From Candidatus Spongiisociaceae bacterium (GTDB lineage: Bacteria; Actinomycetota; Acidimicrobiia; Spongiisociales; Spongiisociaceae), in NCBI GenBank assembly GCA_965262915.1, contig OZ253564.1, forward strand, positions 640,001-704,000: a stretch of 64,000 nt of DNA. Direction: 5' to 3'. Below are positions 1,975-39,605 of the stretch, one piece after another (within the stretch, counting starts at the first letter, position 1; each line of letters starts with the position of its first letter). The position numbers and the translations under genes are program-made. The notes beneath the pieces were generated by a model that worked only from the letters and a program-made list of their open reading frames with translations, had not been told where the DNA came from and did no database searches.

Positions 1975-2059
1975 TGTTGACGATCGTTGAAACTCCCCAC
2001 TCTCGATCACTGAAATTCACTCATAGTGGATGGTGCCCCGTTTCTTTGGGGGTCACTGC

Positions 2060-2260
2060 GATGATGCGGGTGGCCCCCCGGGACCGGGGGGCGGGTCTGA
2101 CCCAACTGAAATTTGGCGTGTGGATTGCCTTTGTGGGGATCTGTCGGCCTGTTCCCCCGGTCCCGGGGGCGGGGTTGTGGCTCGAAGCGGATGTGACCTT
2201 GTAGGAGCTTTAGCTTGCCAGCACCGTGAGTGTATTGTCCGCCGTTTTTGGCCGGAACCC
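2060..2260 (+). ncRNA. Putative IS110 bridge RNA, copy 1 (boundaries approximate)
   Basis: Non-coding left end holds ACTGAAATT (2105-2113) and GTGGGGA (2133-2139) matching the target, and GTAGGAGC (2201-2208) and TGAGTG (2227-2232) matching the donor junction. Confidence 0.8.
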
Positions 2261-2296
2261 CTTCTAGCAAGACGGTAGTCCACGGGGAGGTGGGTC

Positions 2297-3527
2297 GTGT
2301 CAGAGGATGGGGTTGGTGTTTTCGGTGGGGTTGATACCCATCGGGATGCCCATGTGGGGGCGGTGGTGGATAGCGCTGGTCGCCTGTTGGGTTCGGAGTC
2401 GTTCGCAGCGGAGAGAGCCGGGTATCGCCAGATGGTCGCCTGGTTCGGATCGCAGGGTCGGCTGGTTCGGGTCGGGGTGGAAGGGACAGGCAGCTACGGC
2501 GCTGGGCTGGCTCGTTATCTGACCGCAGCCGACATCGATGTGGTGGAGGTGAACCGCCCCAACCGCCAACTACGCCGCCAAAAGGGCGGGAAGTCTGACA
2601 GCGTCGACGCCGAGGGAGCAGCTCGGGCGGCTGCTAGCGGGGAGGCGGCGGCGGTTCCTAAGTCTGGTGATGGGCCGGTTGAGTGCCCTGCGGATGCTGT
2701 TGGTGGCCCGCCGCTGGGCGACCAAGGCCCGCACCCAGGCGGCTAACCAGATCCATTCTGTGATCGTTGGTGCCCCAGAGCAGGTCAAATGTCAGCTCAG
2801 GGGCCTGAACCTCAGAGTACGAGTAGCGGTTTGTGCCCGCTGGCGTCCCGGTGAAGCACAGACCACAGCCGCGTACGCGAAACGGGTTCTACGCCACCTG
2901 GCCCGCCGATACCAAACCCTCGACGCAGAGATCACCGAACTTGAGGGAGACATCCGTCGTCTCTGCGCTAGGGCGAACCCGGCGTTGTTGGCCGCCAACG
3001 GTGTGGGCCCTGACACAGCCTCGGTGCTGCTGGTCGCAGCCGGCGACAACCCCGGGCGAATGAAATCGGAACGGTCCTTCGCGGCGCTGTGCGGCACCAG
3101 TCCTGTTCAGGCATCATCGGGACAGACCATACGGCATCGTCTCAACCGGGGCGGTAACCGCCAAGCCAACAGCGCGCTGTGGCGGATCGCTACCACCCGG
3201 ATGCGCACCGACGCTGCCACCAAAGAATATGTGACCAGACGCCAGGGGGAAGGAAAGAACCGAAAAGAGATCATCCGCTGCCTCAAGCGGCACATCGCCC
3301 GAGAGATCTACCGACTACTCACCAACCCGCCCCCAACCCCGAACTGCGCCCGCCTACGCGACCAGCGTCAACATGCCGGTATCACCGTGACCCAGGCCGC
3401 CCAAGCCCTCGGAACCCACACAGCCCGCATCTCAGAACTCGAACTCGGACGGAACCACAACCACCAGCTAGCGACCCGATACCAGAGGTGGCTCCGCACC
3501 CACGAGGCGGCCCCATCACCGATTTGA
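2297..3527 (+). pseudogene. IS110 recombinase with C-terminal HTH, frameshifted near 2686
   Basis: ORFs 2297-2746 (GVDTH, GVEGTG, KSDSVDA) and 2667-3527 (ASSG..RHRLNRGGNRQAN) together equal the intact 37266-38495 protein. Confidence 0.9.
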
Positions 3528-3639
3528 CAACCGTAGGAGCATCCCCACCCTGTGACAGCAAATACCAGACGTTGAGTGGGGTCCTCTCCAAGCTGCTGAC
3601 TGAGAGATCTGGCAGCGAGGAGAGGGAGCCCCACCGCTG

Positions 3640-4949
3640 ATGTTGGCACAGGAGGAATCCGTGGAAGTACACGCGTTGAGGAAGCGAGGCTGGTCGATGT
3701 GGGCCATTGCCCGCCATGTGGGAAGAGACCGCAAAACAGTACGAGCTCACCTGTCAGGTGAGCACGTGCCGGGCCGGCGGAGGTCGGCGGAGCCGGATCC
3801 GTTCGATGTGGTCGAGGCTTATGTTGGGCAGCGGCTGGCCGAGGATCCCCATCTTTGGGCGACGGCACTGTTCGACGAAGCCAAGGGTCTGGGGTATGGG
3901 CAGAGCTATGTGACGTTTGCCCGTAAGATCCGAGTCCGGCGGCTGCGTCCGTCGTGTGCGGCGTGTGGGGGAACCCGAGGACAGCCGACCGTGGTGATCG
4001 ATCATCCGGCGGGCGAAGAATGCCAGTGGGACTGGTTGGAGTTGCGGGACACCCCGTGGGGGTCGAAGGTTTTCGTGTTGGTGGGTGTGCTGTCACATTC
4101 GGGCAGGTTCCGGGCGTGGGTGAGCTCGAGCCAGGACCAGGCGCATCTGGTGGAGGGCATCGACGCGGTGCTGCGCCGCTTCGGGGGAACCGCTAGGCGG
4201 TGGCGGGTGGATCGTATGGCCACAGTCCTGGTGCCGGGCACTGATCGGATACAGGCCTCGTTCGTGGGAGTCGCCAAGCACTATGGGGTGGGGGTCGATC
4301 CGTGTCCCCCGAGACGACCGAACCGCAAAGGCGTGGTCGAGAAAGCGATCCATTACATAGCTCAGCGGTGGTGGCGCACCGCAGCAGTGGGGACGGTGTC
4401 CGAGGCGCAGGACAGCCTCGATGAGTTCTGCGAGAGGGTTGGGGATGCCCGCCGGCGGGCCGGGGGCAGCGTTGGGGAGCTCGCCGATACGGAACCGTTG
4501 CTTCCGCTTCCTGCGATGCCGTATCCGGCGGAGGGAGTCCTGGTCCGCAAAGTGGCTGCCAACGGGCTGGTGTCGGTGCGGGGCAACCGATATTCGGTGC
4601 CGCCTTCTGTGATCGGAACCGAAGTTAGTGTCGTTGGCGGCTGGGTGACCCAATCTTCGATGTGATCTCGGCTTCTGGGCGGCTGGTTGCCACACATCGG
4701 AAGGTTCCCCGCGGTCAAGGCAGGGTGGTTCGCCTCCCCCAACACACCGCAGCCCTCCAAAAGGTCGTGCTGGCCTCGTTCACCACCGCTCGGCCCCCCA
4801 AACCGAAGCCGAACCGGCCACCATCGCAAGCGGCTCGGGCGATCGCCGCCGACATTGGGGGCGGAGTGGAACACGGTGAGCCGGTTATCGACCTTGCCGT
4901 CTACCAGCGTCACATCGACCACCAGAACCACCATCGGGGCCGGCGATGA
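3640..4949 (+). pseudogene. istA: IS21 transposase IstA, frameshift near 4630
   Basis: N-terminal HTH (AIARHVGRDRKTVR), QWDW, KGVVEK, NRYSVP; C-terminus continues in ORF 4662-4949. Confidence 0.88.
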
Positions 4950-5734
4950 GCAGAGACAGCGTCTACCAACAGTTGCGGGGACATCTCGCCTACCTCAAGC
5001 TCGCAGCAGCTGCCGAGGCGCTACCAGGCCGGCTCGAAGCAGCCCGCAGAAGAAGCATCGGCCATACCGAGTTCCTCGAAGAGTTGCTCCGAGTCGAGGA
5101 CGCGTAGCCACCGAAACGCGACGGTGGAACAGCCGGATGCGGTTCGCGAACTTCCCAACGGCCTGGCAGCTCGAAGACTACGCGTCTTCTCCGCCCAGCC
5201 CAGCATCGACCAAAAACTCGTGCGGGAACTCGCCACAGGCGCCTACCTCGCCGACGCGACCAACGTGCTGCACATACGGCCCGCCCGGTGTCGGCAAGAC
5301 CATGCTGGCGGTCATCTTGGGCCGAGCCGCGGTCGACGGCGGCCACAGGGTGTACTACACCACCGCCGCGGACCTCGCAGCCCGCTGCCCCAACAGCCGC
5401 CCTCGAAGGCCGATGGGCCGCAACCATGCGGTTCTTCTCCGGCCCAGCCGTGCTCATAGTGGATGAACTCGGCTATCTCCCCATGCCATCCGAAGACGCC
5501 GCCTCCCTGTTCCAGGTCATCTCCCGCAGATACCAGAAAGGCTCGATCATCCCCACCACCAACCGCAGCGTCGCCGCCTGGGGAGACATCTTCTCCGACA
5601 CCACAATCGCCGCTGCCATGCTCGACCGGCTCCTGCACCGCAGCGTCGTCTTCACCATCACGGGAGACAGCTACCGGCTACGCGCCTACCACGCCCAGGC
5701 CCGAAAACACCGACCGAAAGGAGGCGCCAACTAG
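4946..5734 (+). pseudogene. istB: IS21 helper ATPase IstB, several frameshifts
   Basis: GPPGVGKT Walker A, LIVDELGYLP Walker B and AMLDRLLH spread over different frames. Confidence 0.88.
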
Positions 5735-6228
5735 ACTCACCAACACACCCGGGGTGGGGAATTTCAATGATCGACTCCGGGGAATTTCAGTGATCGCCAT
5801 CATCCGCGCAGCCTCAAATATTCCGGAGACCCCGGGTTCGGAGCTGCTTGCGAATCGTTCCCCTCCCGGACCAGGGTCGCCCTCGGAGTGGCTCGGGTCC
5901 ATTCCTGTCACCAACTCTGAACAAGGCCCGACGTGCTGGCAGACTTGGTCGACGCTGATGATGTGCCCGGCTGGTTGGTGGTGTGCTAACTGTTGCGCAG
6001 TCTGAGCGTGGACGCGTCAAGGAGGCGACACTAACCATGGTTGTCGGATCACCTATGTGGCGTCTGGGAGCGAATCGCCATTCCGATCGTCAGGCGTGTG
6101 CGTATCTCCTCGGGGTCCATATCTGGCTCGCCAGCGAGCCATCCTATCACAGCTCGAACGAGGCCTCTACCACAACCACCAGCTGGCTACCCGATACCTC
6201 GAAAACGGATTTGCAAAACTTAGGGGCA

Positions 6229-7890
6229 TCGTGACCTCACCAACCTGTGGCGCCTGCAGCTCCACGATAACCGGTTGAGCGGGTCGATCCCGGCGGAACT
6301 GGGTGACCTCACCTACCTGGAGCAGTTGGGCTTGACGGACAACCGCTTGAGTGGGTCGATCCCGGCGGAGCTGGGTGACCTCACCAACCTGCAGAACGTG
6401 CGATTCGCGCTCAATTCGTTGACCGGATGCGTTCCCCTCGGGTTGCGCCATCTGCTGCGCCTTTCAAACTATTACGACGGAACCCCAGCCCATGACTTCA
6501 TCGAGGTGGACGCCAACAACGACGGCGATACCAACGACGAGGGCGATGTCCCCGGCCTGGACCTACCGTTCTGCATGCTCAGGACGCTGACGCTCAGCAA
6601 CGGGACCCTCACACCGGAGTTCGCCACCGGCACAACAACCTATACCGCCTCGGTGGGCAACGATGTGGAAACCACAGTAACTGCGACGACCCACAACACC
6701 GCTGACAGCGTGTCCATCACGAAAGGCGCGGACACCTATACAAGCGGAACCGTGGCCGAGAACACCCCCGCAGGTCTGCCCATCTGCGCTCCGGTGGCCG
6801 CCTCCGATCCCGACGTGGTCAACGGCGACACGCTTACGTACACCCCCGGACGGCGACGATGCCGCTTCCTTCGACACCGTGACCTCGTCGGGTCAGTTGC
6901 GGACCAAGACTGCTTTGGATCACGAGACCAAGCCCAGTTACTCGATGACAGTCTCAGTCCACGACGGCAAAGACCACGACGGCAACCCCGACCTCACTGC
7001 TGACGACACGATCGCCGTGACCGTCACCGTAACTGATGTGGATGAGGCCCCCGATCTGAGCGGTCCCGCAGCGGTTGCCTACGACGAGAACAACAGCGGC
7101 CCGGTCGGTTCCTACACTGCCGACGATCCTGAGGGGGCCACTATCATCTGGACCCTGGCCGGAACAGACGCTGGCAGTTTCACATTCACTGATGGCGTAC
7201 TCGAGTTCGCGGTTATCCCAGACTACGAACAGCCTGCCGATTCGAACCGGGACAACACCTATGTGGTGACTGTTCAGGCGTCGGATGGGACCAACATTCC
7301 CACCCAGACGGTGACCGTTTCGGTGATCAACGTGGACCCCCCGAACAGAGGAGGCGGAAGTGGTGGCGGCGGTGGCGGTGGGTCGGGGCTGCTCCCTCCG
7401 GGTGCTAACCAGCCGCCCGCTTTCGCCGAAGGTTCCCGAACTATGCGTACAGTGGCGGAGAACAGCCCCGCCGGGACCAACATCGGTGGACCGGTCACCG
7501 CAGAGGACCCCGAAGACGATCCCCTCACCTACAAACTGGCAGGCACCGACACCGACGTGTTCGACTTCGACACCGAAACAGGGCAGCTCAAAACCAAAGC
7601 AGCCCTGGACTACGAAACCAAGAACAGTTACAGGGTGACCGTAGAGGTGCGGGACAGCAAAGACCCCGAAGGCGAACCCGACGAGCGGCGGGACGACTCC
7701 ATCGCAGTAACCGTCAACGTCGCTAACCGAAACGACATCGGACATCTCACCCTGTCCGCACCCACACCCAGAGCCGGCCAACCCCTCCAAGCCGTGCTAG
7801 CCGACCCCGACGGTGCCACCAACGTCGCGTGGGTTTGGGAACGCTCCACCGACCGGACCACGTGGGCACCCATCCCAGACGCCACCTCGG
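6229..7890 (+). pseudogene. Inverted, internally deleted copy of the LRR-cadherin-SLH gene
   Basis: Translations (SGSIPAELGDLTYLEQLGL, PAHDFIEVDANNDGDTND, PPGANQPPAFAEGSRTMRTVAENSPAGTN) closely match segments of 9971-15313 and 8298-9974; no start or signal peptide, frameshifted, cut by IS3. Confidence 0.85.
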
Positions 7891-8349
7891 CTGCGGGTAG
7901 TCGGATGGTCCATGCGCAACGACATGGCCATCACCACACGTAAACCCGACCGGGTGATCCATCATTCGGATAGGGGAAGCCAACCCGGGTTCAAGGGGTC
8001 GTTGCAACACTGCCTTGTTGGAGGGAGTCTAGGTGTTCGGTGAGGGCCTCGGCTGGGGTCCTGTAGCCGAGAGTTTTGCGGGGTCGACCGTTGAGGGCTG
8101 CGGCGACGGCGTCGCCGAGTCGTTCTTCGCCACCCTCGAGACCGAACTCCTGGACCGGACCAGCTTCGCCAACCGGAACCAGGCCCGCTCAGCCATATTC
8201 GACTACATCGAAGGCTTCTACAACCCCCACCGGCGGCACTCCACCATCGGATACCACTCACCCACCGACTACGAAAGGAGCACCACCACCACCCCAACTA
8301 CCCTGCCGATCCCCTAACCGAAACTGTCCACAAAAGCGGGGCAACTCCA
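7891..8349 (+). mobile_element. IS3-family 3' remnant containing an IS30 right-end fragment (7984-8110)
   Basis: VVGWSM..HHSDRGSQ, AESFFATLETELL..YNPHRRHS; IR AAAAGCGGGGCAACTCCA; CCCGGGTTCAAGGGGTCGTTGCAAC at 7984 matches the IS30 end at 62172-62197. Confidence 0.85.
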
Positions 8350-9974
8350 GTTCGGGTTGGGTCGGGTTCGGGTTGGTGGGTCAGGGCCCGGTGTAGGAAG
8401 CTGGCCATTTGTGCTCGGGTGACCGCCTGGTTGGGGCAGTATTGGGGTGGGCCGGTAGTAGCGCATCCTGCGGTGATACCGGCGGCGGCGAGGGTGTCGA
8501 TGTTGGCTTCGTGGACGTTGCCTTCGATATCGTCGAACCCGGCGGGTGTTTGGGCTGGGGCCAGTTGGAACGCTCTGGTTAGGAAGCTGGCCATCTGCGC
8601 TCGGGTGACCGCCTGGTCGGGGCAGTACCGGGGCGGGCCAGTAGCACACCCGGCGGTGACGCCTAGGTCGGCGAGCTGCTCGACGTGGCGGATCCACCAC
8701 TGGCCGCCGGCGATGTCACCGAAGCGGGAAACACCTGCGACAGGGGCTTCGCCACCGAGGACACGGATCAGCCATACGGCCATCGTCCATCGGCGGATGG
8801 GATCTTGGGGACAGAACAGCCCGTCGCCGCATCCGGTATCTACAAACAGGCCGTCTGCGGCTAGCGCGTCGATAGCGGGGGCATGCACTCCTTCTGCGGC
8901 AACGTCGGAGAAAACGGTTGTGTACCCGACAGTTACCGGGTTGGGGGGTGCGGCCGCCACGGTCTTGCCCGACCCGAACGGGTCCCCGTAGGTGGCCATC
9001 ACCCGCAGCTGGTGGCCCTCGTCGTCGGTGTCGGGGGTGTACACAGCCGAGGCGGCGTCTGGGATGAGTGCCCACGTGGTCCCGTCGGTGGAGCGTTCCC
9101 AAACCCAGCCGATGTTGGTGGCACCGTCGGGGTCGACTAGTACGGCTTGGAGGGGTTGGCCGACTCTGGGTGTCGGCGCGGATAGGGTGACCCATCCGGG
9201 GTCGTCTCTGTTGGTGACCCCAATCGTTACCCGGATGGAGTCGTCCCGCCGCCTGTCGGCCTCGCCGGCAGGGTCTTTGCTGTCCCGCACCTCTACGGTG
9301 ACCGTGTAACTGTTCTCGGTTTCGTAATCCAGGGCTGCCTTGGTTTTGAGCTGACCCGTTTCGGTGTCGAGGTCGAACGATTCGGCGTCGACGCCGGCCA
9401 GCTTGTAGATGAGAGGGTCCCCTTCGGGGTCGGCGGCGCCGACTGGTCCACCAACATTGGTCCCGGCGGGGCTGTTCTCCGCCACTGTCCGCATAGTTCG
9501 GGAACCCTCAGCGAACTCGGGCGGCTCGTTAGCACCCGGCGGCAAAGGCGCAGGACCCCCACCTCCGCCGCCACCTCCACCGCCTCCTCCACCGCCGCCG
9601 CCACCGCCTCCGGTCTGCGGTGGGGATGTTGGTGGGGGTGTTGGACGTGGGGGTGTTGGTCGTGCCGGGTTCGGAACGTGGTCGGTAGTGGCGGCGGTGG
9701 CGTCCTTGGTGGGGCCCTCGGCGTCGTCGTAGGTGACAACAACTTGGAGGTAGTGGCCCCTATCCGCGGTGGTCGGCGTGTAGGAATCCCCCTCCGCGCC
9801 GGGGATCGGAGTCCAGTACTGGTTGTTCTGGGACCGTTCCCACCGCCACACCCGGCCGCGGATCTCCCCGTCGGGATCCTCGAGAACAGCCGACATCTCA
9901 ACATCCACCTCCGGGCGGGCGGGCGTCAGCGTGACCGTACCCTTCTCCTCCTGGTTGGTCACCGACACCGTCAC
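8298..9974 (-). CDS. C-terminal part of giant surface protein (cadherin-like domains, Pro/Gly linker, three SLH repeats)
   Basis: Begins mid-cadherin (TVSVTNQEE), continuous with the upstream ORF by a frameshift near 9985; VTRAQMASFL SLH motifs; last codons derive from the IS3 IR. Confidence 0.85.
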   Translation of the reverse strand: MTVSVTNQEEKGTVTLTPARPEVDVEMSAVLEDPDGEIRGRVWRWERSQNNQYWTPIPGAEGDSYTPTTADRGHYLQVVVTYDDAEGPTKDATAATTDHVPNPARPTPPRPTPPPTSPPQTGGGGGGGGGGGGGGGGGGGPAPLPPGANEPPEFAEGSRTMRTVAENSPAGTNVGGPVGAADPEGDPLIYKLAGVDAESFDLDTETGQLKTKAALDYETENSYTVTVEVRDSKDPAGEADRRRDDSIRVTIGVTNRDDPGWVTLSAPTPRVGQPLQAVLVDPDGATNIGWVWERSTDGTTWALIPDAASAVYTPDTDDEGHQLRVMATYGDPFGSGKTVAAAPPNPVTVGYTTVFSDVAAEGVHAPAIDALAADGLFVDTGCGDGLFCPQDPIRRWTMAVWLIRVLGGEAPVAGVSRFGDIAGGQWWIRHVEQLADLGVTAGCATGPPRYCPDQAVTRAQMASFLTRAFQLAPAQTPAGFDDIEGNVHEANIDTLAAAGITAGCATTGPPQYCPNQAVTRAQMASFLHRALTHQPEPDPTRTGVAPLLWTVSVRGSAG

Positions 9975-15313: not shown

Positions 15314-15316
15314 TGC

Positions 15317-20541: not shown

Positions 20542-20549
20542 GGCTCTTC

Positions 20550-22027
20550 GATGCTCCTATGGTTGTCAAGTCGGTGATGGGGCCGGTTGGTGGGTTAGGA
20601 GCCAGGTCTGGTATTGGCTGGCGAGTTGGTGGTTGTGGTCTCGGCCGCGTTCGAGTGCGGAGATGCGGCTGGGGTGGGTTCCGAGCTGTTGGGCGGCCTG
20701 GGTGAGGGTGATGTTGGCGTGTTGACGTCGGCGGCGGAGCCGGGCGCAGTTCGGGGTTGGTGGCGGGTTGGTCAGCAGTCGGTAGATCTGTGGGGCGATG
20801 TGCCGCTTGAGGCAGCGGATGATCTCTTTTCGGTTCTTTGCTTCCCCCTGGCGCCGTGCCACGTATTGGTTGGTGGCTGCGTCGGTGCGCATCCGGGTGG
20901 TAGCGCATCGGCCAGAGCGCGCTGTTGGCTTGGCGGTTACCTCCCCGGTTGAGACGATGCCGGATGGTCTGCCCGGATGATGCCTGGACGGGGCTGGCGC
21001 CACACAGCGCAGCGAAGGACCGTTCTGATTTCATCCGCCCGGGGTTGTCGCCGGCAGCGACTAGCAGGGCGGCAGCGGTGTCAGGGCCCACACCTTTGGT
21101 GGCTAACAGAGCCGGGTTAGCCTCGGCGCAGAGGCGACGGATCTCGATCTTGAGTTCTGCGATTTCTGTGTCGAGGGCTTGGTATCGGCGGGCCAGGTAG
21201 CGTAGAGCCATCTTCGCATACGCCGCAGTGGTCTGTTCGGGTCCGGGACGCCAGCGGGCACAGACCCGGACCCGAGCCTTGAGCTTGAGACCTCTGAGCT
21301 GGCGTTTTAGCGGCTCAGGTGCGGTAACGGTCACAGAATGTATCTGGTTAGCGGCCTGGGTGCGGGCCTTGGTAGCCGAGCGGCGGGCCACCACCAGCAT
21401 CCGTATGCACTCAACGGGGCCCACACCAGATTTGGGAACAGCCGTAGCTTGACCGCTGGCAGCCGCCCGAGCTGCCCCCTCGGCGTCGACACTGTCGGTC
21501 TTGCCGCCCCGCTGGCGGCGTAACTGCCGGTTCGGCCGGTTCACCTCTACCACCTCGACGCCCGCTGCGGTCAGATAACGGGCGAGGCCGGCGCCGTAGC
21601 TGCCAGTGCCCTCCACCCCCACCCGGCTAACGCGACCCTGTGACCGCAACCAGTCTTCGAGTTGCTCATAGCCGACTCGATCAGCTCCCAACGGTGCCGT
21701 TCCCAGCACTCGACCGGCGCCATCAACCACCGCCGCAACATGGGTATCACGATGGGTATCAACCCCACCGAACACAACCCGACCATCTTCTCCCATGACA
21801 CCTTCCTCCTCTGCGGGATAGAATCATTTCCGATCCCCGGACCCGGCAAGCGGTGGACAGGCCACTCACGGTGGTGGAAGATCAAAGCTCCTATAAGGTC
21901 ACATCCGCCCCGGGTCAGGGGGTTACGCCCTAGGCCGGGGACAGGCCGACAGATCGATGAAAAGGCACAAAGCCAGATTTCAGTTGGGTCAGACCCGTCC
22001 CAGCCCAGGAACCTTCTAAGTATGAGT
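20550..22027 (-). mobile_element. IS110-family element, copy 2
   Basis: Same ends as copy 1; recombinase 20566-21796 frameshifted near 20910. Confidence 0.92.
21835..22010 (-). ncRNA. Putative IS110 bridge RNA, copy 2 (boundaries approximate)
   Basis: Guides ACTGAAATC (21976-21984) and TCATCG (21955-21960); donor guides ATAGGAGC and TGAGTG. Confidence 0.8.
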
Positions 22028-23458
22028 GGATTTCAGTGGGGAGTGACGGTGGCGAGGAGGTCCCAGTTGGGTTTCCCGGCGTAGAGAAGGGCGCGGATTC
22101 GGTAGTTCGCGAAGTTGCGAAACCCGAACGCTGCTCGTTTGATCCGCTTTATGAGGTTGTTGAGGGCTTCGGTGGGTCCGTTGGTTACCTCGGGTGATGT
22201 GCCAGTTGGTGATCTGGGGGGTCCAGCGGGCGATGGTGCGACCCAACTTGTTGATCTCGGGTGGGCAGGATTCGTGTTGGAGGCCGTCTGCGAGTTGGAG
22301 GGTGTACCGGAGAGCAAGGGCGGGACTGTCGATCCCGTAGATGCCCCGTACCGTTTCCTTCGCGTGCCAGGCGGTGCGCACTTCGCCGTGGGGGTCACCG
22401 GCATCGAGGAGACCACGCAGCCGGGTTTGACCGCGGTCGCTGATCCTCTCATGCGCAGCGGTGAGGAGCCGCCGTATCCGATACAGCGGGTCATCCTTGC
22501 GGCCTCGATGCCCGAGGGTTTCGTTCTGGGTGCGGCGTCGTACCTCGTCGAGTCGCTGGTTGGCTAGGCGGATGACGTGGAACGGGTCCGCTACCTGCAG
22601 AGCGTGCGGTAACACCCTGTCATACGCCTTCCGATACGAACCGGACATGTCCAACACCGCCCAGCGGATCCCGTCGAGCCACTCGGGGGGCTGGGATCGG
22701 AACCACGAAGCTGCGCTATCAGCCGTTCTACCAGGGACTATGTCGATCAGCTGGTGGCCTCCCACGTCGACGACAGAGGTGCACCACTGCTTGGTTCGCC
22801 ACCGGCCTTTCCGCCAGAACAACGCTTCTTGTCGATGCCCACAGCTTGGACCTCGCCTATCCGATCGGTGTCGGCCCCCAGGAGTGCATCGCCCCAGCGG
22901 ACGACCTCGTTGTTCACCGTATGCCAATCACAACCCAACTCCGCGGCGACCTCGTCGACCGAACGGCCCCGCCCACCCACCTGGACGGTCACCCACCGGG
23001 CCGCTCTCGATGTCAACAACGCCCGTTGGGGACCAATCGTGGGGTCTTGTTCGATGAACGATCTGATCTCACACCCCGAGTTCGGACACGTCCACCGGCG
23101 TTTCCGCCACCGCAGCCGAACCGGACGGCCGAACGCCGGTAAATCCACCAACACCACACTCCGATAGCCCTTCGACCACACCGGGCCGCCACATGCCACA
23201 CACAACGGGCGGGGCTTGCGGGACCCGATCACCACCTCCAACGGTGCACCCTCGCCCGAGTCGTTGATCCCTACCAGATCAACGTCGCCCAGGCCTACCA
23301 ACAACTCGCACATGCGCGTAGGATCACCCCCCACCAGGGGGGCCTCCTGCCTCGGATGTCTTTTCTCAGCACCCGATTATGGAGGACCCCCCATCACTTC
23401 TGGTGGATTACCGCTCCCCCTGGCAGATCCCCTACTCCCCACTCATTTCCGAAGAGCC

Positions 23459-27511: not shown

Positions 27512-27517
27512 GGACAA

Positions 27518-28971: not shown

Positions 28972-28972
28972 C

Positions 28973-30466: not shown

Positions 30467-30468
30467 GC

Positions 30469-32221: not shown

Positions 32222-32605
32222 GCTTGGGCTGGAGTGGAAGCGGTTGTATCCCACGAGACCGCACTGGAGGTTCACCGAATTCGAGTGACGACACCGCTGC
32301 GGACACCGGTCGATGTCGCTGCTGTCGGCGTCGACGGCGACCAGCTTGACCGTGCGATCGAGGAGGCTCGCGATCTCGGTGTGCTCACGCCCCGTCAGCT
32401 CCGCGAACGAGCCGAGGCAGCGGACATCAAAGCCGCGCTGCGCATCGAGCAGTCTCTCGGGAGGCTCGGCCTCTGATGCGCTACCGAAGCCCGGCAGCAC
32501 TGCACATGGCGCTTGGACAGTGCCTTCTCAACGAGTCCCGGGACTCCGGTTATCAGCCTTTATCGGCTTCGCCAGCCGGCGATGTATGAGCGAATCGGCT
32601 GTCGA
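32222..32605 (+). pseudogene. Decayed duplicate of abiEi 3' half and abiEii start
   Basis: Near-identical to about 27736-28240, with an internal deletion. Confidence 0.85.
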
Positions 32606-32836
32606 TGCCCCGGTCAAGCACACCGTGGAACTGCAACGGGCTGACCACCGGGTGGTGAGGGCCCTTCGTTGCGGCCCTCGAGGCGGGAGCGATCCAGGTG
32701 TCGATTGCGGACGCTGCAAGATGGACAGTTACCCGCGTCCGGAAACGCTTGAGCCGGTACCGCCAAGACGAGCGGTAGGACCGTTATAAAGGGAGGCGCG
32801 CCCTCGCCGACCTCTAGCAGCCGTGCGTCGGCAGGT

Positions 32837-33248
32837 TCAGACGGAGAAGGTGAAACGGCCGGCAAAGTCGACCGTTAACACTCCCTTACAGATGATATCC
32901 CTACCGATCAGCACGTCGAAAAAAGGGGAGCCGGATCCAAAGGCAGTCACTTGGTGGTCCGGGATACCGATGTGCTGTGAACCGAACTGCAGCAAGAGAT
33001 CTACGAGGTACTGGTTAGCGACGGCGGTACCGGTGGCCCCCACTACTTGCATCTTGCCGGTGGGCTGCAACCCCAGGAAGGACGTCACCCCCTCAGAGAT
33101 GCACGTCGCGTCGGCGCCGGTGTCTACAAGGCCCGAGAACACCCTTGCCTCGCCTTGAGGCTGCTGCTCTAGCGTTCCGCCCGGTAGGGACGGCTACCTG
33201 GAGCAAGATACCGACGGTTGGGTCGTACTCGCCGCTAAGACACGGCAT
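32837..33248 (-). CDS. Clan AA (retropepsin-like) aspartic protease, apparent frameshift near the 5' end
   Basis: GLVDTGADATCIS and VLIGRDII motifs; ATG at 33248 (MPCLSGEYDP) overlaps the upstream gene but is one base out of frame. Confidence 0.8.
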
Positions 33249-33489
33249 GGGAGAACCATCCCAGATCTACAGGCCGGTCGGTGACCTCCTGTACCGAGTA
33301 ACAGTCCTCCGGGTAGAGATTGACTCCCGCCAGGTGAGCATCCCGCGCGGTGTCAAACGCGGCGGTGAGCGCGCCATCGTGAAGGAGCGCCCACTGGTTC
33401 GCGTGAGTTCTTATCAGACCGGGAAGCAAAGCCACGAAGGCCTCGTAGTTACGGTCCACTTCCTTCTGAGCTTCTGTCTTCGTCACCAT
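33235..33489 (-). CDS. Small DUF5678-like protein
   Basis: NYEAF..LLPGL..HANQWALLHDG..FDTARDA..G pattern; overlaps the protease start. Confidence 0.65.
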   Translation of the reverse strand: MVTKTEAQKEVDRNYEAFVALLPGLIRTHANQWALLHDGALTAAFDTARDAHLAGVNLYPEDCYSVQEVTDRPVDLGWFSHAVS

Positions 33490-33784
33490 TTTCCTCTAGT
33501 ACCCCTCGGTCGGTGAGGGCCGCCACCCTACTACGGCGCCCGAGGTACGTTTCGGCCCCACCTCGGCGGTGTTCGGGTCAAGTCCATCTTCTGTCGAGCC
33601 TAACCGGCTGTAGCTCGGGCCGGGATCAGCTAGCCGGGCAGCCCCGGCCTTTTCTGCATGGTGGCGCTCCACGCCCCGCCGCCCCCCTGCGCTCCCAGGC
33701 AACCCCACCAATGCCCGCCAGCAGCCCGACCCGGAACCCGAACCGGAAGCACTTGATGTCAGCTGTCACCGGTCTTCCTTACCG

Positions 33785-34126
33785 TCATCGATCTCCTCGG
33801 CGAAGAGGAAATCCCCATGGACGGTAGACCCTGTGCCAGACGACTCGCTCAGAGCTTCGATGTCGACGCATTCCGACTGGCCTGCAGTCATCGCCAGTCT
33901 CTTGAAGGATCGATCGTCCCTTACCACCTAGCGAACTTAGCAGCGCCTCTCTGGACTGATCGGCGTCCTTAGCACCCAAGACGTGGACGACCTGCTCAAG
34001 GTAGGCCAGACGTTCCGCATTGCGAGCGTTCATCCGAGCCCCACCAGCCCAAAGATGCATGGACCGCTCACTAACACCGAACAGGCGTCTCAGCTGATCC
34101 CAGGTCAGACCTGATTGGTTCTTCAA
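33785..34126 (-). pseudogene. XRE-type HTH protein remnant
   Basis: SGLTWDQLRRLFGVSERSMHLWAGGARM. Confidence 0.6.
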
Positions 34127-34368
34127 CCGACGGACCCGTGACGCCGCAAGCGGCTTGGGATGCGGATCGCCCTTGAGGCTTCGAACAAGTGAACCATTCG
34201 AAGATGTGGATGCATCCGTCGCGACGCGAGCAGCTACGTATTCCCACGAACCATCGAAGACTGCCCACGCCAGGCGGCACCGCGGTTGAGTCAGGTCCGG
34301 GGGGTCGGTGTACGGGTCGCGCGGAACGCATCGGACCGTCGCCGCCGACCACTGCGGGGATGGGCCCG

Positions 34369-34800
34369 CTACGACCTTCGTCGTTGACGCCGCCGCCTAT
34401 GCCCCTTGCGGTGCGGTCTGGACCCGTTGTTCACGAACGCGCCGACCAAGAGCAGGAGTACGGCGATCAGGAGGACTCCCAGCATTATGGGTATCGCCGC
34501 CAACGCCGAGATGACGAGCCCGGCGACGGCCCACTCCCGTCCCTCCTTCGCGCCCCGGGCGCCGTGGAGCCCCGCCCAGGACAGCGACGCCCCCACCAGG
34601 ATCAGGATCACGCACCACGTCACCGGCTGCCCTGACGCCAGGAACCTCACCAGGTTCGACCAGGTCCACCCGTGGCTGAACCACCAGGCGGTCTGCAGCG
34701 CCGCGGCGGCTAGGGCGACGACGAAGCCCGCTACGGGTAGGGTGCCCGACCAACCGGGATGCGGTCGGTAGACCTCTAGATATTCTCGTGTAGCCATCAC
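34369..34800 (-). CDS. Small membrane protein (paralogue of 52434-52862)
   Basis: Three or four hydrophobic segments; GGAGAGG upstream; conserved duplicate. Confidence 0.7.
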   Translation of the reverse strand: MMATREYLEVYRPHPGWSGTLPVAGFVVALAAAALQTAWWFSHGWTWSNLVRFLASGQPVTWCVILILVGASLSWAGLHGARGAKEGREWAVAGLVISALAAIPIMLGVLLIAVLLLLVGAFVNNGSRPHRKGHRRRRQRRRS

Positions 34801-34952
34801 ACACCTCTCCTGCGGGTGCGGTATCCATATCTGTGTGATTCCAACTGTATGGGGTGGGTGTGACAGATCGCCGCGGCAAGGTCTGCCGATCCTCCCGATA
34901 TGCTCCCCCCGGTACTAGCGGATGGCCCCGAGCAACGGGCCGGGCGCCACGG

Positions 34953-35276
34953 CTACGGGTGGAGACGGACTGGACGGGGAGGGGGCCCGTTCCAGCCTCG
35001 CGCCACCAGCTCGGAGAGCTTGAGGCCCGCGTCGGAGGCCGATGCGGGCAGCCGCCGAGCAGTGGTCACTCCGGTCACTTCGCGGCGCAGAACCAAACCA
35101 CAGTCAGCCCCGAGGTAGTCGATCAACTCCGGATGATGCGAGCAGATCACCGCCTGTGAAGGTGTCTCCTCGCAGAGGTCGACCAACTCCATCAGCCATG
35201 GCCGGAGTTCGGCAAGAGCCACGTAATTGTCGGCCTCGTCGAGAAACTACAGGATTCCGTTTCCGTTCTGTCCTAG
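34953..35276 (-). pseudogene. ABC/AAA_21-type ATPase, C-terminal part
   Basis: FLDEADNYV (Walker B), ICSHHPELID; joins 39606-40449 at CTAG. Confidence 0.8.
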
Positions 35277-35959
35277 GGCCTATTGACACTGCGTAGGGCT
35301 TCGGTTATCAGCACGAAGGTGATGAACCCGATGTAGATCACGTTGAGTTTGTCGTAGCGGGAGAAGATACGGCGGTATCGGTTCAGCCAGCGGAACAGTC
35401 GCTCTACCTGGTTGCGTCTCTTGTACATCTGTCGGTTGTAGTCCCACGGTGTTTTGCGGTTGCTCTTGGGAGGAACCACCGGGGTGTAGCCGAGTTCGAG
35501 CGCGAGTCGTCGTGTCTCGTCGCCTTCATAGGCACGGTCCATCACCAAGAACCGCTCGTCGGGTTGGGGACCCCCTTTTTTGTGGGGTGCCGGTACCGTC
35601 GGGATGGACCTTGACGATTGTGGAGTCGATCCCGACGGCTTCGGTGTTGAGGTTTATGGTCCCTTCTTGGGCTAACCCCTTCAGTATCCGGTCTAGGACT
35701 CCGTTTCGGGTCCAGCGGTTCATCCGCTTATAGATGGTGTACCACTTACCGAACCGCGGTGGGCGTCCCCGCCATTTTGCAGCCGTGTTCCGCCACATAG
35801 AGGAACGCGTTGAGCATGTCAAGGTTTGATATCTTGACGTTGCCGCGCTGTGTCGGGAATAGATGAACGATACGGTCGTATTGTTCTTGCGTAACCGTCA
35901 TACATAGATTATATCGAAATCTACCAAAAAACGCGAGCGTCGGATAGCGTCAACAGGCC
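35277..35959 (-). mobile_element. IS5-family element, internally deleted
   Basis: IRs GGCCTATTGACACT / AGCGTCAACAGGCC flanked by CTAG; IDSTIVKVH, MDRAYEGD, YKRRNQVERLF. Confidence 0.88.
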
Positions 35960-36140
35960 CTAGATCAACGTCGCCCAAGCCTACCAGCATCTCGCACATG
36001 CGCGCAGGGGTCAGCTTCCACAGGGATCCTCCCGACTCGGATGTCGTTGCTTTAAACCTGAGTATCGAGGACCCCTGTTCACTCCTGGTGGATTACGACC
36101 CCCTGACACATCCCCCTACTCCCGATCCACTCACCAAGGG
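35960..36140 (-). mobile_element. ISL3 5'-end remnant
   Basis: Homologous to 17021-17190 (EADPARMCEMLVGLGDVDL); breaks at CTAG and continues at 39609. Confidence 0.8.
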
Positions 36141-36192
36141 ACTGTTACGGTGACTGCACCATCACACGCCTCGCGCCTTTGCTGGGAGCCCC

Positions 36193-37023
36193 ATGGCCAT
36201 TCTGTTAGCTGCCCTGACTTCTGTCTTCTACGGGGTGTTTGACTTCGCCGGTGGGATGGCCACCCGTCGTGCCTCTGTGTTTGCCGTTGTTTTTTGGTCC
36301 AATGTCATGGGTCTGGCACTTTCGGGTTTTATTGCGTTCGTTTACCATCAGGTGTTCGGGGCCACCGTCACTCTCTCCGACCTGGCCTGGGGAGCATTGA
36401 GCGGCGTAGCCGCGGTCGCCGGGGTGGTCGCCTACTACGAGGGGTTGGCAAAGGGCCAGATGGCGGTGGTTGCTCCGGTATCGGCCGTCACCCTGGCATT
36501 GGTCCCTCTCCTGTTTGGGTTCCTGACCGGAGAACGCTACGACTTGTTGGCGTGGATAGGGGTTGTGATTGCCGCCCCTGCCCTGTGGCTGACCGTTGCG
36601 ACTCCGACCCGTGAAGACCGTCCGGGGAAGGCGATTTACGGTCTCGCAGCCGGTTTGGGCTTCTCGTTGATGTTCATCGGCCTCGCGCAAGTCTCAAGCG
36701 ACGCCGGAATGTGGACGTTGATTCCCTTCAAGTGCGCCAGCGTCGCCGTAGCAGGTGTCCTGATCAAAGTGCGGGGAATTCCGCTCGGCCTGCCAAGGAA
36801 GAATCTCCTTTTGGCGTTCGCTGCCGGGGGTTCAGTGTTGGCCAACCTCACCTACCTGCTGGCGGTGCGATTCGGGCCACTGGGACTTGTGGCGGTTGCG
36901 TCGTCCCTCTACCCGGCTGTGGTAGTCGTTATGGCCTTCTTGGTCTATAAAGAAAAAGCTCCTCCCCAACGCATCGCAGGCCTCGTGCTATCCCTAGTAG
37001 CCCTGTCCCTGATCGCCCTTTGA
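36193..37023 (+). CDS. EamA/DMT-family transporter
   Basis: Ten hydrophobic segments; GQMAVVAPVSA, SSLYPAVVV..YKEK. Confidence 0.9.
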   Translation: MAILLAALTSVFYGVFDFAGGMATRRASVFAVVFWSNVMGLALSGFIAFVYHQVFGATVTLSDLAWGALSGVAAVAGVVAYYEGLAKGQMAVVAPVSAVTLALVPLLFGFLTGERYDLLAWIGVVIAAPALWLTVATPTREDRPGKAIYGLAAGLGFSLMFIGLAQVSSDAGMWTLIPFKCASVAVAGVLIKVRGIPLGLPRKNLLLAFAAGGSVLANLTYLLAVRFGPLGLVAVASSLYPAVVVVMAFLVYKEKAPPQRIAGLVLSLVALSLIAL

Positions 37024-37265
37024 GCTAGTTGGACTGTCGGGGCGGGATTCGAGTTCCACCTTGTCGAGCGTGTCCCTCAACTGGTGGTGGGCTATCACGC
37101 GGTAATGGGGCTCATCGCGTTTTAGTGGGGTGTGACGGTGGCGAGTGGGTCCCAGTTGGGTTTCCCCGCGTACAGGAGTGCCCGGATTAGGTAGTTCGCG
37201 AAGTTGCGGAACCCGAAGGCTGCTCGTTTGATGCGTTTGATGGCTCATCGATGCTCCTATGGTTG

Positions 37266-38495
37266 TCAAATCGATGATGGGGCGGTTTGGTGGGTGTGCA
37301 GCCAGTTCTGGTATCGGGTGGCGAGGTGGTGGTTGTGGTCTCGGCCGTGTTCGAGTGCTGAGATGCGATTGGGGTGGGTTCCGACGGCTTGGGCGGTCTG
37401 GGTGAGGGTGATGCCGCGTTGTTGGCGTCGGGTGCGTAGGCGGGCGCAGTTCGGGGTTGGGTGCGGGTTGGTGAGGAGCCGGTAGATTTCTCGGGCGATG
37501 TGCCGCTTGAGGCAGCGGATGATCTCCTTTTTCTTCTTGCCCTCGGCCTTGCGTCGTGCCACGTAGGCTTTGGTGGCGGCGTCGGTGCGCATCCGGGTGG
37601 TAGCGATCCGCCATAGCGCGTTGTTGGCTTGGCGGTTGCCGCCCCGGTTGAGACGATGCCGAAGGGTTCGTCCTGATGACGCCTGGACGGGGCTGGCGCC
37701 GCACAGCGCCGCGAAAGACCGTTCCGATTTCATTCGCTTGGGGTTGTCGCCGGCGGCGACCAACAACGCGGCGGCTGTGTCAGGACCGACACCTTCTGTG
37801 GCCAGCAGGGCCGGGTTGGCCTGGGCGCAGAGACGCCGGATCTCGGCTTCGAGTTGGGCGATCTCTACGTCGAGGGCCTGATACCGGCGGGCCAAATGCT
37901 GTAGGGCACGCTTCGCATACGCGGTGGTGGTGTGGTCTGTGCCGGGTCGGAACCGGGCACAGGTTTTGACCCGTGCTTTGAGATTCATGCCCTTTAGCTG
38001 GTGTTTTAGCGGCTCGGGAGCTGTTACGACCAGCGCATGTATCTGGTTAGCGGCCTGGGTGCGGGCCTTGACCGCGGAGCGGCGCACCACCCACAGCATC
38101 CGTATGCACTCGACCGGGCCCACACCGGACTTGGGAACCGCGGTTGCTTCGCCCGAGGCAGCTGCCCGAGCTGCCGCCTCGGCGTCGACGCTGTCGGTCT
38201 TGCCGCCCTTCTGGCGGCGTAGTTGGCGGTTGGGGCGGTTGACCTCCACCACCTCGATGTTCATCTCGGTCAGGTAACGGGCCAGGCCGGCGCCGTAACT
38301 ACCCGTTCCTTCCACCCCAACCCGAACCAACTGTCCCCGCGACTCGAACCAGGTGACCATTCGCCGATAACCGGATTCCTCCACCGCGAAAGACTCCGAT
38401 CCCAGTACCCGCCCGACGCCATCCACCACCGCTGCTACGTGGACGTCCCGATGGGTGTCAACCCCACCGTAGATAATCTGGTCTGCTTCTCCCAT
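37266..38495 (-). CDS. IS110 bridge recombinase with C-terminal XRE-like HTH
   Basis: DEDD (GVDTH, GVEGT, KTDSVD), ASSG serine loop, then LRTRRQQRGITLTQTAQAVGTHPNRISALEHG. Confidence 0.95.
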   Translation of the reverse strand: MGEADQIIYGGVDTHRDVHVAAVVDGVGRVLGSESFAVEESGYRRMVTWFESRGQLVRVGVEGTGSYGAGLARYLTEMNIEVVEVNRPNRQLRRQKGGKTDSVDAEAAARAAASGEATAVPKSGVGPVECIRMLWVVRRSAVKARTQAANQIHALVVTAPEPLKHQLKGMNLKARVKTCARFRPGTDHTTTAYAKRALQHLARRYQALDVEIAQLEAEIRRLCAQANPALLATEGVGPDTAAALLVAAGDNPKRMKSERSFAALCGASPVQASSGRTLRHRLNRGGNRQANNALWRIATTRMRTDAATKAYVARRKAEGKKKKEIIRCLKRHIAREIYRLLTNPHPTPNCARLRTRRQQRGITLTQTAQAVGTHPNRISALEHGRDHNHHLATRYQNWLHTHQTAPSSI

Positions 38496-38529
38496 GATGC
38501 TCTTCTCCTCTAGGGGATAGAATCATTTC

Positions 38530-38710
38530 CGATCCCCGGACCCGTGTGCGGTTGGACAGGCCACTCACGGTGGAGAAGTTGAAGGCTCCTATTAGGTCAC
38601 ATCCGCCCCGGGTCAGGGGGTTACGCCCCAGGCCGGGAACGGGCCGACAGATCGATGAAAAGGCACAAGGCCAGATTTCAGTTGGGTCAGACCCGTCCCA
38701 GCCCAGGAAC
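38530..38710 (-). ncRNA. Putative IS110 bridge RNA, copy 3 (boundaries approximate)
   Basis: Guides ACTGAAATC (38674-38682) and TCATCG (38653-38658); donor guides ATAGGAGC and TGAGTG. Confidence 0.8.
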
Positions 38711-39605
38711 CCTCCAATTATGAGTGGATTTCAGTGGGGAGTGACCGATGCGAGGAGGTCCCAGTTGGGTTTCCCCGCATATAGGAGTGCCCGGATTAGG
38801 TAGTTCGCGAAGTTGCGGAACCCGAACGCGATGCGTTTGATCCGCTTTATGAGGTTGTTGAGGGCTTCGGTGGGTCCGTTGGTTACCTTCGAGATGTGCC
38901 AGATGGTGATCTGGGGGGTCCAGCGGCCGATGGTGCGGCCCAGCTTGTTGATCTCGGGTGGGCATGATTCGTCCTGGAGGTCGTCTGCAAGCTGGAGGGT
39001 GTATCGGATAGCCAGGGCGGGGCTGTCGATCTCGTAGATGCCTCGGACGGTTTCCTTGGCGTGCCAGGCGGTGCGGACTTCTCCGTGGGGGTCACCGGCT
39101 TCGAGGAGACCACGCAGGCGGGTCTGACCGCGGTGGCTGATCCGTTCGTGGGCGGTGGTCAGTAGCCGCCGTATGCGATAAAGGGGGTCTGGTTTCCGGC
39201 CTCTGTGTCCGAGGGTTTCGTTCTGGACCCTTGCGTACTTCGTCGAGTCGCTGGTTAGCTAGGCGGATGACGTGGAACGGGTCTGCTACCTGCAGAGCGT
39301 TCGGCAGCACCCGGTCATAGGCCCGTTCGATACGGGCCCGACATGTCCAACACAGCCCGGCGGATCCCGTCGCGCCACTCCACCGGTTGTGATCGGAACC
39401 ACCCGGCGGCGCTCTCGGCACGTCCAGCGGCGCTTCCGCTAACAGAGACGAACCGGCCGGCCGAACGCAGGCAAATCCACCAACACCACGCTCCGATATC
39501 CCTTGGACCACACCCCTCCGCCACAGGCCTCACAGACCGGACGGGCCTTACGGGAGCGGATCACCACCTCCAACGGACCCTCACTGCCCGCGTTGATGAT
39601 CCCGA

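Follow-up and report, generated by a model that had tools for sequence, protein, structure and literature searches.

What has placed three IS110-family elements, spread over one stretch of bacterial DNA, each in the end of another insertion sequence (IS), and what singles out those ends? The question arises from a window of 64,000 nucleotides (nt; G000:C1:640001-704000, the whole stretch of DNA that was analysed) in a genome of 5.06 Mb that forms a single contig with 64.4% G+C. An earlier note on this DNA, hereafter the original prediction, had proposed that the non-coding left end of each element holds a bridge RNA whose guides match the occupied site, and that one lineage had switched host between the families ISL3 and IS21. 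The best explanation overall, to which we assign a probability of about 90%, is that these are bridge-RNA-guided IS110 elements which insert into other mobile elements and have repeatedly been retargeted. The observations that carry it are the sequence anatomy of the elements, the fold of their left ends, the covariation of guides and sites, the occupancy of those sites and the homology of the recombinase to that of IS621.

All three elements were recovered (copy 1, 2018..3543, + strand; copy 2, 20550..22028, - strand; copy 3, 37250..38726, - strand), with the correction that only copy 3 encodes an intact transposase (409 aa, 37266-38495), the gene being frameshifted near residue 125-130 in copy 1 and near residue 296 in copy 2. 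The two open reading frames (ORFs) left in copy 1 (2297-2746 and 2667-3527, +) match Pfam DEDD_Tnp_IS110 in the first and Transposase_20 together with HTH_31 in the second. The copy 3 protein contains DEDD_Tnp_IS110 (PF01548, 1.2e-23), Transposase_20 (PF02371, 1.7e-19) and a C-terminal helix-turn-helix (HTH), and it matches the NCBIfam model transpos_IS110, 'IS110 family RNA-guided transposase', at 4e-62, above the cut-off of 140 bits. It also aligns at low sequence identity with the IS621 transposase 8wt6 (E 9.5e-12, phmmer) across the GxDT, EGTG and KTDxVDA motifs (D/E/D/D), and its SSG stretch faces ESGSS of IS621; these four motifs we take to be functional in the recombinase. Residue S241 of IS621 is named in the accessible part of PMC11208158. 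The left end occupies the 231-279 nt ahead of the start codon and the right end lies ~15-35 nt past the stop codon, and the element ends, CACTCATA.. and ..TAGGAGCATC, form no inverted repeats. Judged by these sequences, the three elements belong to the IS110 group of the IS110 family, and the profile and IS621 matches, together with the two-loop left ends described below, bear out the bridge-RNA layout that had been proposed.

The host of copy 1 is an IS21 element, whose limits were set from three genomic copies. The outer 43 nt of its left inverted repeat (1975..2017, +), beginning TGTTGACGATC at 1975, are severed by copy 1 from the remaining element (3544..5803, +), which carries an istA-like ORF at 3640-4665 (Pfam PF00665 (rve) and Mu-transpos_C_2) and an istB-like ORF at 4687-5466 (PF01695, IstB). 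Each IS21 end contains two ~18-bp repeats GATCAnTGAAAnTCCCCA, presumably bound by IstA, and copy 1 sits inside the inner repeat, 43 nt into the left end. Two empty near-targets are found in the right inverted repeat of the same element, at 5756-5768 and 5779-5791. Copy 2 lies in an ISL3 element of a subfamily designated ISL3-a (20542..23458, -), with the right tip CGAAGAGCC at 20542-20550 and the left tip GGCTCTTCG at 23450-23458, a sequence which we take to be a typical ISL3 end, and copy 3 adjoins the ISL3-a right tip CGATGAGCC at 37242..37250 (-), with a further ISL3 transposase 3'-end fragment beyond. Both are placed 9 nt inside the right tip CGA(A/T)GAGCC, directly past the stop codon of the ISL3 transposase, which matches DDE_Tnp_ISL3 (PF01610, 3.7e-37), with Zn_ribbon_ISL3 and HTH_Tnp_ISL3 on the upstream ORF. 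Past GAGCC, the flanks of ISL3-a differ among 17 copies. The Pfam genes, the inverted tips and the repeated IS21 ends thus agree with the hosts named in the original prediction.

The surroundings of the ISL3-a copies deserve a separate remark. Sequence at 37150-37241 and 38727-38850 belongs to a second ISL3 transposase 3'-end fragment (..IKRIKRAAFGFRNFANY..) following the host ISL3 of copy 3, and the region looks like an ISL3 inserted into an ISL3; a left tip for copy 3's host was sought up to 41500 and none was found. The left inverted repeat of ISL3-a (23430-23458) reads CCCCACTCATTTCCGAAGAGCC and includes CACTCAT, the first 7 nt of the IS110 left end, which may be there by chance.

The guides were read from the left end of each element as a left and a right target guide (LTG, RTG) in a first loop and a left and a right donor guide (LDG, RDG) in a second. 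The target-binding loop of copy 1 (2105..2139, +) consists of the LTG ACTGAAATT (2105-2113), a small capping hairpin and the RTG GTGGGGA (2133-2139), and its donor-binding loop (2201..2232, +) of the LDG GTAGGAGC (2201-2208) and the RDG TGAGTG (2227-2232). The element begins CACTCATAG at 2018 and ends GTAGGAGCATC at 3533-3543, between the flanks gatcACTGAAATT (2009-2017) and CCCCACCC. The target guides agree with these flanks (ACTGAAATT at 2009-2017 and CCCCAC at 3543-3548), the LDG is identical to the right end (GTAGGAGC, 3533-3540), and the RDG complements CACTCA at the left end (2018-2023). Copy 2, which lies on the - strand, has its LTG at 21976-21984, the RTG TCATCGA at 21954-21960, the LDG ATAGGAGC at 21887-21894 and the RDG at 21863-21868, with ccccACTGAAATC and CGAAGAGCC as flanks, and copy 3, likewise on the - strand, has the four guides at 38674-38682, 38652-38658, 38585-38592 and 38562-38567, respectively, with the flanks ccccACTGAAATC and CGATGAGCC. 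When the three left ends are aligned, differences are found at the guide positions and the scaffold around them is conserved. Every motif listed in the original prediction was found where it had been placed; only the description of the copy 1 site needs amending, as LTG and RTG overlap there by 1 nt and not 2, which follows from the site being 15 nt long and amounts to a one-base register shift relative to the other classes of guides.

Unconstrained folds of the three left ends gave two stem-loops with guides on both sides of internal loops (z = -2.3, -2.1 and -3.4), LTG and RTG flanking the first internal loop and LDG and RDG lying in the second. For nine left ends of seven guide classes, aligned with MAFFT, RNAalifold recovered stem-loop 1 and not stem-loop 2, the letters of the donor guides being paired with one another; when the guides were forced to stay unpaired, the same two stems formed in 8/9 left ends. 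For pair counts, the constrained fold of copy 2 was projected onto this alignment. In the projected two-stem structure 83.3% of 400 cells were paired and 14/45 pairs had changed on both sides, and none of 500 shuffles reached either its paired share or its covariation score. Folds, RNAalifold and pair counts over the nine left ends thus place the guides inside the internal loops of a predicted conserved fold, as had been anticipated.

To see how far guides and sites agree elsewhere, the three copies were compared by BLAST with the whole genome, which gave 48 merged loci, full-length and fragmentary, including 34 left ends with a readable loop 1. These sort into about ten guide classes: A (LTG ACTGAAATC, RTG reverse complement CGATGA; 17 left ends), B1 (ACTGAAATT, CCCCAC; 2), B2 (GGTGAAATC, CCTTGG; 2), C (CGCGAAAAC, CGTGGG; 4), D (CCGGGAAAC, CCGGGG; 1), E (CCTCGTAAC, CATGAC; 1) and F (AAAGAACAC, CAACGC; 3), with G, H and I on four truncated left ends. 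Copy 1 belongs to class B1, and copies 3 and 2 represent two sublineages, A1 and A2, of class A. The LTG agrees with the left flank at 9/9 positions in 24 left ends, at 8/9 in four and at 7/9 or fewer in six, and, in the 25 whose right flank is readable, the RTG agrees with that flank at 6/6 in 18, 5/6 in six and 2/6 in one. With one representative for each of the seven classes that have both flanks, cognate guides and sites match at 104/105 positions; derangements of the seven classes match at 51.2 on average and 61 at most, and a single permutation in 5040, the identity, reaches 104. Chance as the source of this agreement is excluded.

Covariation extends to the donor guides. In the 11 elements read, the LDG (A/G)TAGGAGC equals the right end, with one mismatch at locus L034, and guide and end co-vary at two positions, the first being G/G in B1 and B2 and A/A in the other 9/11, the second giving ATAGAAGC/ATAGAAGC at locus L033; the reverse complement of the RDG includes CACTCA, the left end. 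Both parts of the claimed covariation, that of the target guides with host IS ends (28/34 LTGs at 8/9 or better, 24/25 RTGs at 5/6 or better) and that of the donor guides with the element ends, therefore stand.

The junctions also define a core dinucleotide. Every right end has the sequence ..(A/G)TAGGAGCA-TC and every left end starts with (C)ACTCATA; the right junction is always ..GCA-TC-, and the reverse complement of the RTG always begins with TC, from a conserved GAUCUG, followed by five site-specific bases. The LTG comprises 7 nt plus the core, classes A and B2 having TC there and classes C to G AC; the left junction has TC in B1 too, as it does in A and B2, and AC in all five classes from C to G. 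Empty sites agreeing with this layout are ACTGAAATCGATGA, CGCGAAAACGTGGG, GGTGAAATCCTTGG and CCTCGTAACATGAC. The reverse complement of the RDG runs on into the target core (AAC-ACTCA in C and E, AAC-CACTCA in D), which fits the pairing of the RDG with the incoming target core described in the accessible part of PMC11208158. The shifted register of copy 1 could be accommodated if the LTG were displaced by one base and read as CUGAAAU-UU, the core C then being met by a U.G wobble; the core itself would be TC and the left half CTGAAAT, an arrangement that the junctions fit. The same UU opposes the TC core in the donor loop of every class. Read in this way, a single C->U change in the class-A LTG would be enough to give CUGAAAU-UU, a guide for the IS21 site shifted by one base.

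From these data we infer that the RNA is made and that it guides the recombinase. Transcription of the non-coding left end would yield a bridge RNA of ~170-230 nt that steers a DEDD/serine recombinase; in loop 1 the 9-nt LTG would have the sequence that the left half-site and core show on their top strand, and the RTG would be complementary to the core TC and 5 nt of the right half-site, while the donor guides of loop 2 would read the joined element ends ..(A/G)TAGGAGCA-TC-(C)ACTCATA.., the circle junction of the element being expected to read ..GGAGCATC(C)ACTCATA... Insertion would be directed to a word of 14-15 nt, which for nearly all classes would lie within other mobile elements. For class A this word would be ACTGAAA-TC-GATGA, located 9 nt into the right repeat of one ISL3 subfamily, and for class B1 (A)CTGAAAT-TC-CCCAC in the inner repeat of the IS21 left end; the words of the sister classes would be three in a second ISL3 subfamily (ISz) and others in another IS110 element's tip, in the 3' coding part of a third IS110's transposase gene and in one repeat. 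Retargeting would have happened repeatedly, partly one half-guide at a time and partly through exchange of whole left-end modules between co-resident lineages.

The occupancy of the sites agrees with the claim that this lineage lives in the termini of other IS. ISL3-a ends carry 16 left and 17 right junctions of class A as against one intact empty target. ISz hosts class C (at both tips), B2 and E, and the ISz copy in the window (49266..50610, -; transposase 49313-50509) is unoccupied, with intact targets for class C (49270-49283 and 50594-50607, 1 mismatch), E (49312-49325) and B2 (50572-50585); genome-wide, perfect targets that are still intact number 6 for B2, 3 for C and 2 for E. In class F, 2/3 copies (F1 and F3) lie in the 3' coding part of another IS110-family transposase gene, whose Transposase_20 domain (2.6e-23) extends to the junction, and class G is found 4 nt inside the tip of ISx, an element of a second IS110 clade. 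Class D sits in a repeat, and the D copy itself lies in a relative that is only 76% identical. The tip of an IS30-family element (transposase L013:815-2212, NCBIfam IS30 1.6e-73, inserted in a class-B2-type copy) was considered as the class D target and rejected, only 5/9 sites of the repeat being within ~1 kb of an IS30-like gene. A degenerate remnant of the third IS110 transposase, homologous to the gene cut by class F elsewhere, is present in the window at 58090-58180 (-; ..YYLRKRAEGKRHNAAVV..) and at the class-F position reads caaacgccacaacgcc, which differs from the class-F target word.

Could the many filled ISL3-a ends descend from one old insertion, with a composite ISL3::IS110 then spread as a unit by the ISL3 transposase? 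Filling of 16-17 of the ~18 ISL3-a right ends is what such a composite would give, and the 9-nt ISL3 tip is retained outside the IS110. However, the same ISL3 3'-end variants bear either A1-type (copy 3) or A2-type (copy 2) elements, which are only 81% identical, so the junctions are not copies of one event; the A1 copies are 99.3-99.9% identical to one another though the host ISL3 ends differ, and one ISL3-a copy is empty. The insertion moreover separates the 9-nt tip from the rest of an inverted repeat of ~26 bp, which should hinder ISL3 transposition, and hitch-hiking leaves the six other classes at their different sites, as well as the data from other species given below, without an explanation. 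We consider this account improbable. Less credible still, to the point of being very nearly dismissed, is that the guide-like words are footprints of old insertion sites or sub-terminal repeats recognised by a protein. The bridge RNA is known here from DNA alone, and the ISx left end folds no better than shuffled sequence, but the words occupy fixed positions of a conserved, covarying two-stem fold and follow the strand rule of IS621 (LTG in the sense of the left half-site, RTG the reverse complement of the right one), the proteins are homologous to the structurally solved RNA-guided recombinase of IS621, and the covariation holds over 53 guide pairs from other species.

Several points weigh against bridge-RNA guidance of these elements. 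Six of the 34 left ends agree with their left flank at 7/9 or less; among them are old truncated left ends at diverged IS21-like ends, and the second B1 copy and a second B2-type left end (2806494) reach 7/9 each. In classes C, E, F and G the donor and target cores (TC and AC) share the second base (C) only, and the left junction of class D also reads AC. Pairing of the donor guide with the right end stops at a mismatch after only 8 nt, and the LTG and RTG of copy 1 are off by one in register at a site, ACTGAAATTCCCCAC, of 15 nt. In the projected fold, the paired share drops to 36-55% when the structure is slid by 1-3 columns, a control biased in favour of the structure, whose source was one of the sequences in the alignment. 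No bridge RNA in the window was matched by Rfam 15 at its gathering score, a result obtained without checking that Rfam holds such a family. The RNA-labelled runs (n=4) are assembled contigs, which cannot show a transcript, its starts, ends or levels. Two of their contigs cover the left end only (X4, 38544-38686, with 2 differences; X1, 38563-38724, with 10), and X1, given its 10 differences, comes from a related copy, its 'RNA' label being a guess; most of the copy 3 element is uncovered. A joint in X3/X4 that 'goes back 1598' links the two homologous ISL3 3'-end stretches that flank copy 3, and is uninformative on excision. The phylogenetic trees used below (FastTree, midpoint roots) were read without support values. 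Finally, a full class-A2 copy (3663633-3665110, L010) is placed at AAAGAAC-CC-ACCGC, which its own guides match at only 5/9 and 2/6 positions.

Copies with the same guides at unrelated sites had been named as evidence that would count against guidance, and this copy is the only such case among the 17 of class A. Its site agrees with the class-F guides at 12/14 positions, and a paralogous empty site is present at L014:720-750. Donor ends and donor guides being common to all classes, this insertion would be explained most simply by a class-F RNA that acted in trans.

The elements are themselves targets. ISx is a 406-aa IS110-family element (Pfam 4.4e-35, NCBIfam 1.7e-54) with a CT core and its own loop 1, found at L006:295-1806 (genome 287295-288806) and at genome positions 3638532-3640037, 4420442-4421947 and 290128-291615. 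Three guide classes of ISx agree with their flanks, and the case for ISx guides rests on these flank matches, the whole left end and shuffled sequence folding equally well (z = 0.05). ISx-a, present in 3 copies that stem from at least 2 independent events, is inserted at AAGGCTCCT/CTATCA, bottom-strand sequence of the stretch that encodes the donor guide of clade 1, the clade of copies 1 to 3 (GATAG/GAGCC, the slash marking the junction), ISx-b lies in 7-bp tandem repeats (CTG(G/A)CAC)n, and ISx-c is flanked on its left by a clade-1 right end in reverse complement. The right flank of ISx-c is not the rest of that end; the locus is rearranged, and the left junction alone was therefore used. The ISx-a and ISx-c sites indicate that clade 2 targets the word ATAGGAGC, which clade 1 must carry twice.

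It is an evenly balanced question whether the ~10-class radiation of clade 1, the hyperparasitism of ISx on ATAGGAGC, placement across classes and host switches by half-guides jointly make up a food web of mobile elements. In such a web nearly all clade-1 classes would be aimed at two ISL3 subfamilies, IS21 and two other IS110 clades; ISx would hit the word that clade 1 needs both at its right end (left donor, LD) and in the LDG-coding DNA, a word held constant by the way bridge RNAs themselves work, and clade-1 class G would in turn occupy the ISx tip. Given the shared donor ends, the RNA of any class could place the circle of any class, which would explain the odd class-A copy at its class-F-like site. 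Hosts would have been switched one half-guide at a time, via sites sharing one half-site.

How the guides changed is less plain than the fact that they differ, and the order of the evolutionary steps can be proposed only conditionally. The LTG has the form xxTGAAATx in classes A, B1, B2 and H, whose RTGs are unrelated, and H and G have a common RTG and different LTGs. A direct switch between ISL3 and IS21 by one LTG base plus the RTG, as originally suggested, is only partly supported: it agrees with the TGAAAT common to the LTGs of classes A and B1 and with their different RTGs, but these classes are not sister lineages; in both left-end and transposase trees, copy 1 (B1) is nearest to B2, which targets a different ISL3 subfamily, and to F. 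IS21-end targeting is the more widespread state among relatives, which does not fix the direction of the switch.

An alternative to a path of point mutations is that retargeting proceeded mainly by exchange of left-end modules through homologous recombination. A1 and A2 are 94% and 88% identical in two left-end windows and 70-85% in the body; the left-end tree makes A1 and A2 sisters and puts B and F together, the body tree joins A1 with F and then B and leaves A2 outside, and some copies are mosaics of A1-type and A2-type left-end segments. This conflict between left end and body makes module exchange at least as likely as point mutation. Set against it are the lack of support values and of a formal recombination or topology test for these trees, the possibility that stronger purifying selection on the RNA raised left-end identity, and the fact that B1/B2 and C/E share a left-end type yet differ in guides, so that point changes within loops are needed too. 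We therefore hold exchange as the main route to be a plausible proposal that falls slightly short of even odds.

Related genomes carry the same pattern. DNA resembling the left end was found in 13/61 of them (including the present genome, G000), with a readable loop 1 in 20 of the 30 loci listed, 16 of these from relatives, and the loop-1 scaffold in at least 113 public-genome stretches (Actinomycetota, Dehalococcoidia). Across other species the LTG word (at 8/9 or better) occurs within 175 nt upstream for 41/53 distinct guide pairs, as against 2.7% of non-cognate pairings. There, one LTG is paired with up to four RTGs. At an IS21-like end, the relative L042 has an RTG of IS21 type together with ACTGAAATC, the LTG of class A, and L117, from another genome, has class-A guides at an ISL3-type junction, ACTGAAATC on the left and CGATGAGC on the right. 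A public record, L115, has the same scaffold with LTG CGAGATTTC, an RTG whose reverse complement is CGAAGA and a left flank reading CGAGATTTC/CACTCATA; here the target would seem to be another of the ISL3-tip type, one whose inner half differs.

Two further observations concern left ends that break off at the LTG. In the relative G021 (L032:1195-1560, -, as printed, and likewise L019 and L039), a complete element is preceded by 2-7 left-end heads of 51 nt in tandem; each head runs from ACTCATA.. to the end of the LTG word CCTTGTAAC, and its left flank is the LTG-coding DNA of the previous head. In the present genome, a class-B1-like left-end fragment at 1432928-1433021 stops right after the ACTGAAAT of the LTG and is joined to AGTGATCGCCATCA, which looks like an inverted IS21 right tip. 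Half-guide sharing and the tandem heads fit the half-match activity reported for IS621 in the accessible part of bioRxiv 10.64898/2026.08.31.748434.

Insertion of one IS into the terminal repeats of another is not peculiar to this genome. IS1383 is said to insert in the inverted repeats of IS1384 (Muller et al. 2001), and IS4321 and IS5075 reportedly in the terminal repeats of Tn21-family transposons (Partridge & Hall 2003). The elements described here resemble these in lying within another element's terminal inverted repeat at a position and in an orientation that are fixed, but those cases are single pairings of an IS with a host, and IS4321/IS5075 are of the IS1111 group, whereas here a single IS110-group lineage has, within one genome, ~10 classes and several hosts, IS110 elements included.

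The bridge RNA of IS621 from E. coli and large-scale guide/target covariation were described by Durrant et al. 2024 (PMC11208160), and the structure by Hiraizumi et al. 2024 (PMC11208158), which, in the sections accessible, places the core at positions 8-9 with a nearly invariant second core base, allows RTG and RDG to pair with the incoming core and notes tolerance of variation at the first core base. To judge from the accessible parts of these sources, the present elements share with IS621 a recombinase with DEDD and Tnp domains, a bridge RNA upstream of the gene with target and donor loops, LTG and LDG in the sense of the top strand with RTG and RDG complementary, a left guide of 7+2 nt with its core at 8-9 and a near-invariant second core base, and insertion into repeated DNA. 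By the same sources they differ in the core, which is CT in both donor and target of IS621 as opposed to TC in the donor and TC or AC in the target here, in an RTG that always starts with the donor core TC from the conserved GAUCUG, in having the ends of other IS rather than repetitive extragenic palindromic (REP) sequences as targets, and in a transposase of low identity with an extra C-terminal HTH (Pfam HTH_31).

Natural redirection between related IS has been reported for the seekRNA pair ISEc11/ISXne4 (Siddiquee et al. 2024, PMC11187229). This is the same phenomenon as the guide retargeting proposed here, but it concerns IS1111-type seekRNA, usually downstream of the gene, and two elements from different hosts, as opposed to several classes residing together on one chromosome, and neither half-guide sharing nor a register shift is described in the accessible part of that report. 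For IS621, one arm plus the core suffices for insertion in vitro according to the available portion of Xie et al. 2026 (bioRxiv 10.64898/2026.08.31.748434), which offers a route to a new host site sharing the left half-site only, such as ACTGAAAT in the ISL3-a and IS21 ends; that work, as far as its accessible text goes, deals with in-vitro reactions and re-analysed IS621 editing data in which left-target-only (LT-only) events are inseparable, and natural guide evolution is not touched upon.

The mechanism, known since 2024, natural redirection, and the insertion of IS110/IS1111 elements in the repeats of other transposons are thus already in print. No account was found in the literature of a multi-class radiation on several IS families in one genome, nor of an IS110 element aimed at the donor word of another IS110 or of natural trans-guidance, though such cases may be contained in the large supplementary tables of targets that accompany Durrant 2024 and Siddiquee 2024. 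A term search of the accessible text of bioRxiv 10.64898/2026.08.14.744561 likewise found no such network or targeting of guide-coding DNA described.

The value of the system would accordingly lie in its natural history and as a test bed, the mechanism itself not being new. About ten related natural bridge RNAs on one scaffold, with cognate sites of 14-15 nt both empty and filled, form a ready specificity panel, and the second-base core rule, the U.G register shift of copy 1 and the frequent pairs with the same LTG and different RTGs bear on the off-target rules of bridge-recombinase editors. That one ISL3 family is nearly saturated suggests a way in which IS110 elements may hold other IS in check, namely through the splitting of their inverted repeats. 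If true, trans-guidance and the targeting of one IS110's donor word by another would be new points on competition among RNA-guided transposons.

Mobile elements are dense in the window as a whole. At gathering score Rfam matches only two features there, a domain of a group II intron (47.2 bits) and a pseudoknot of the ALIL type (72.7 bits), listed at 61574-61672 (+), 62742-62861 (-) and 59985-62187, with IS30-like transposase fragments nearby.

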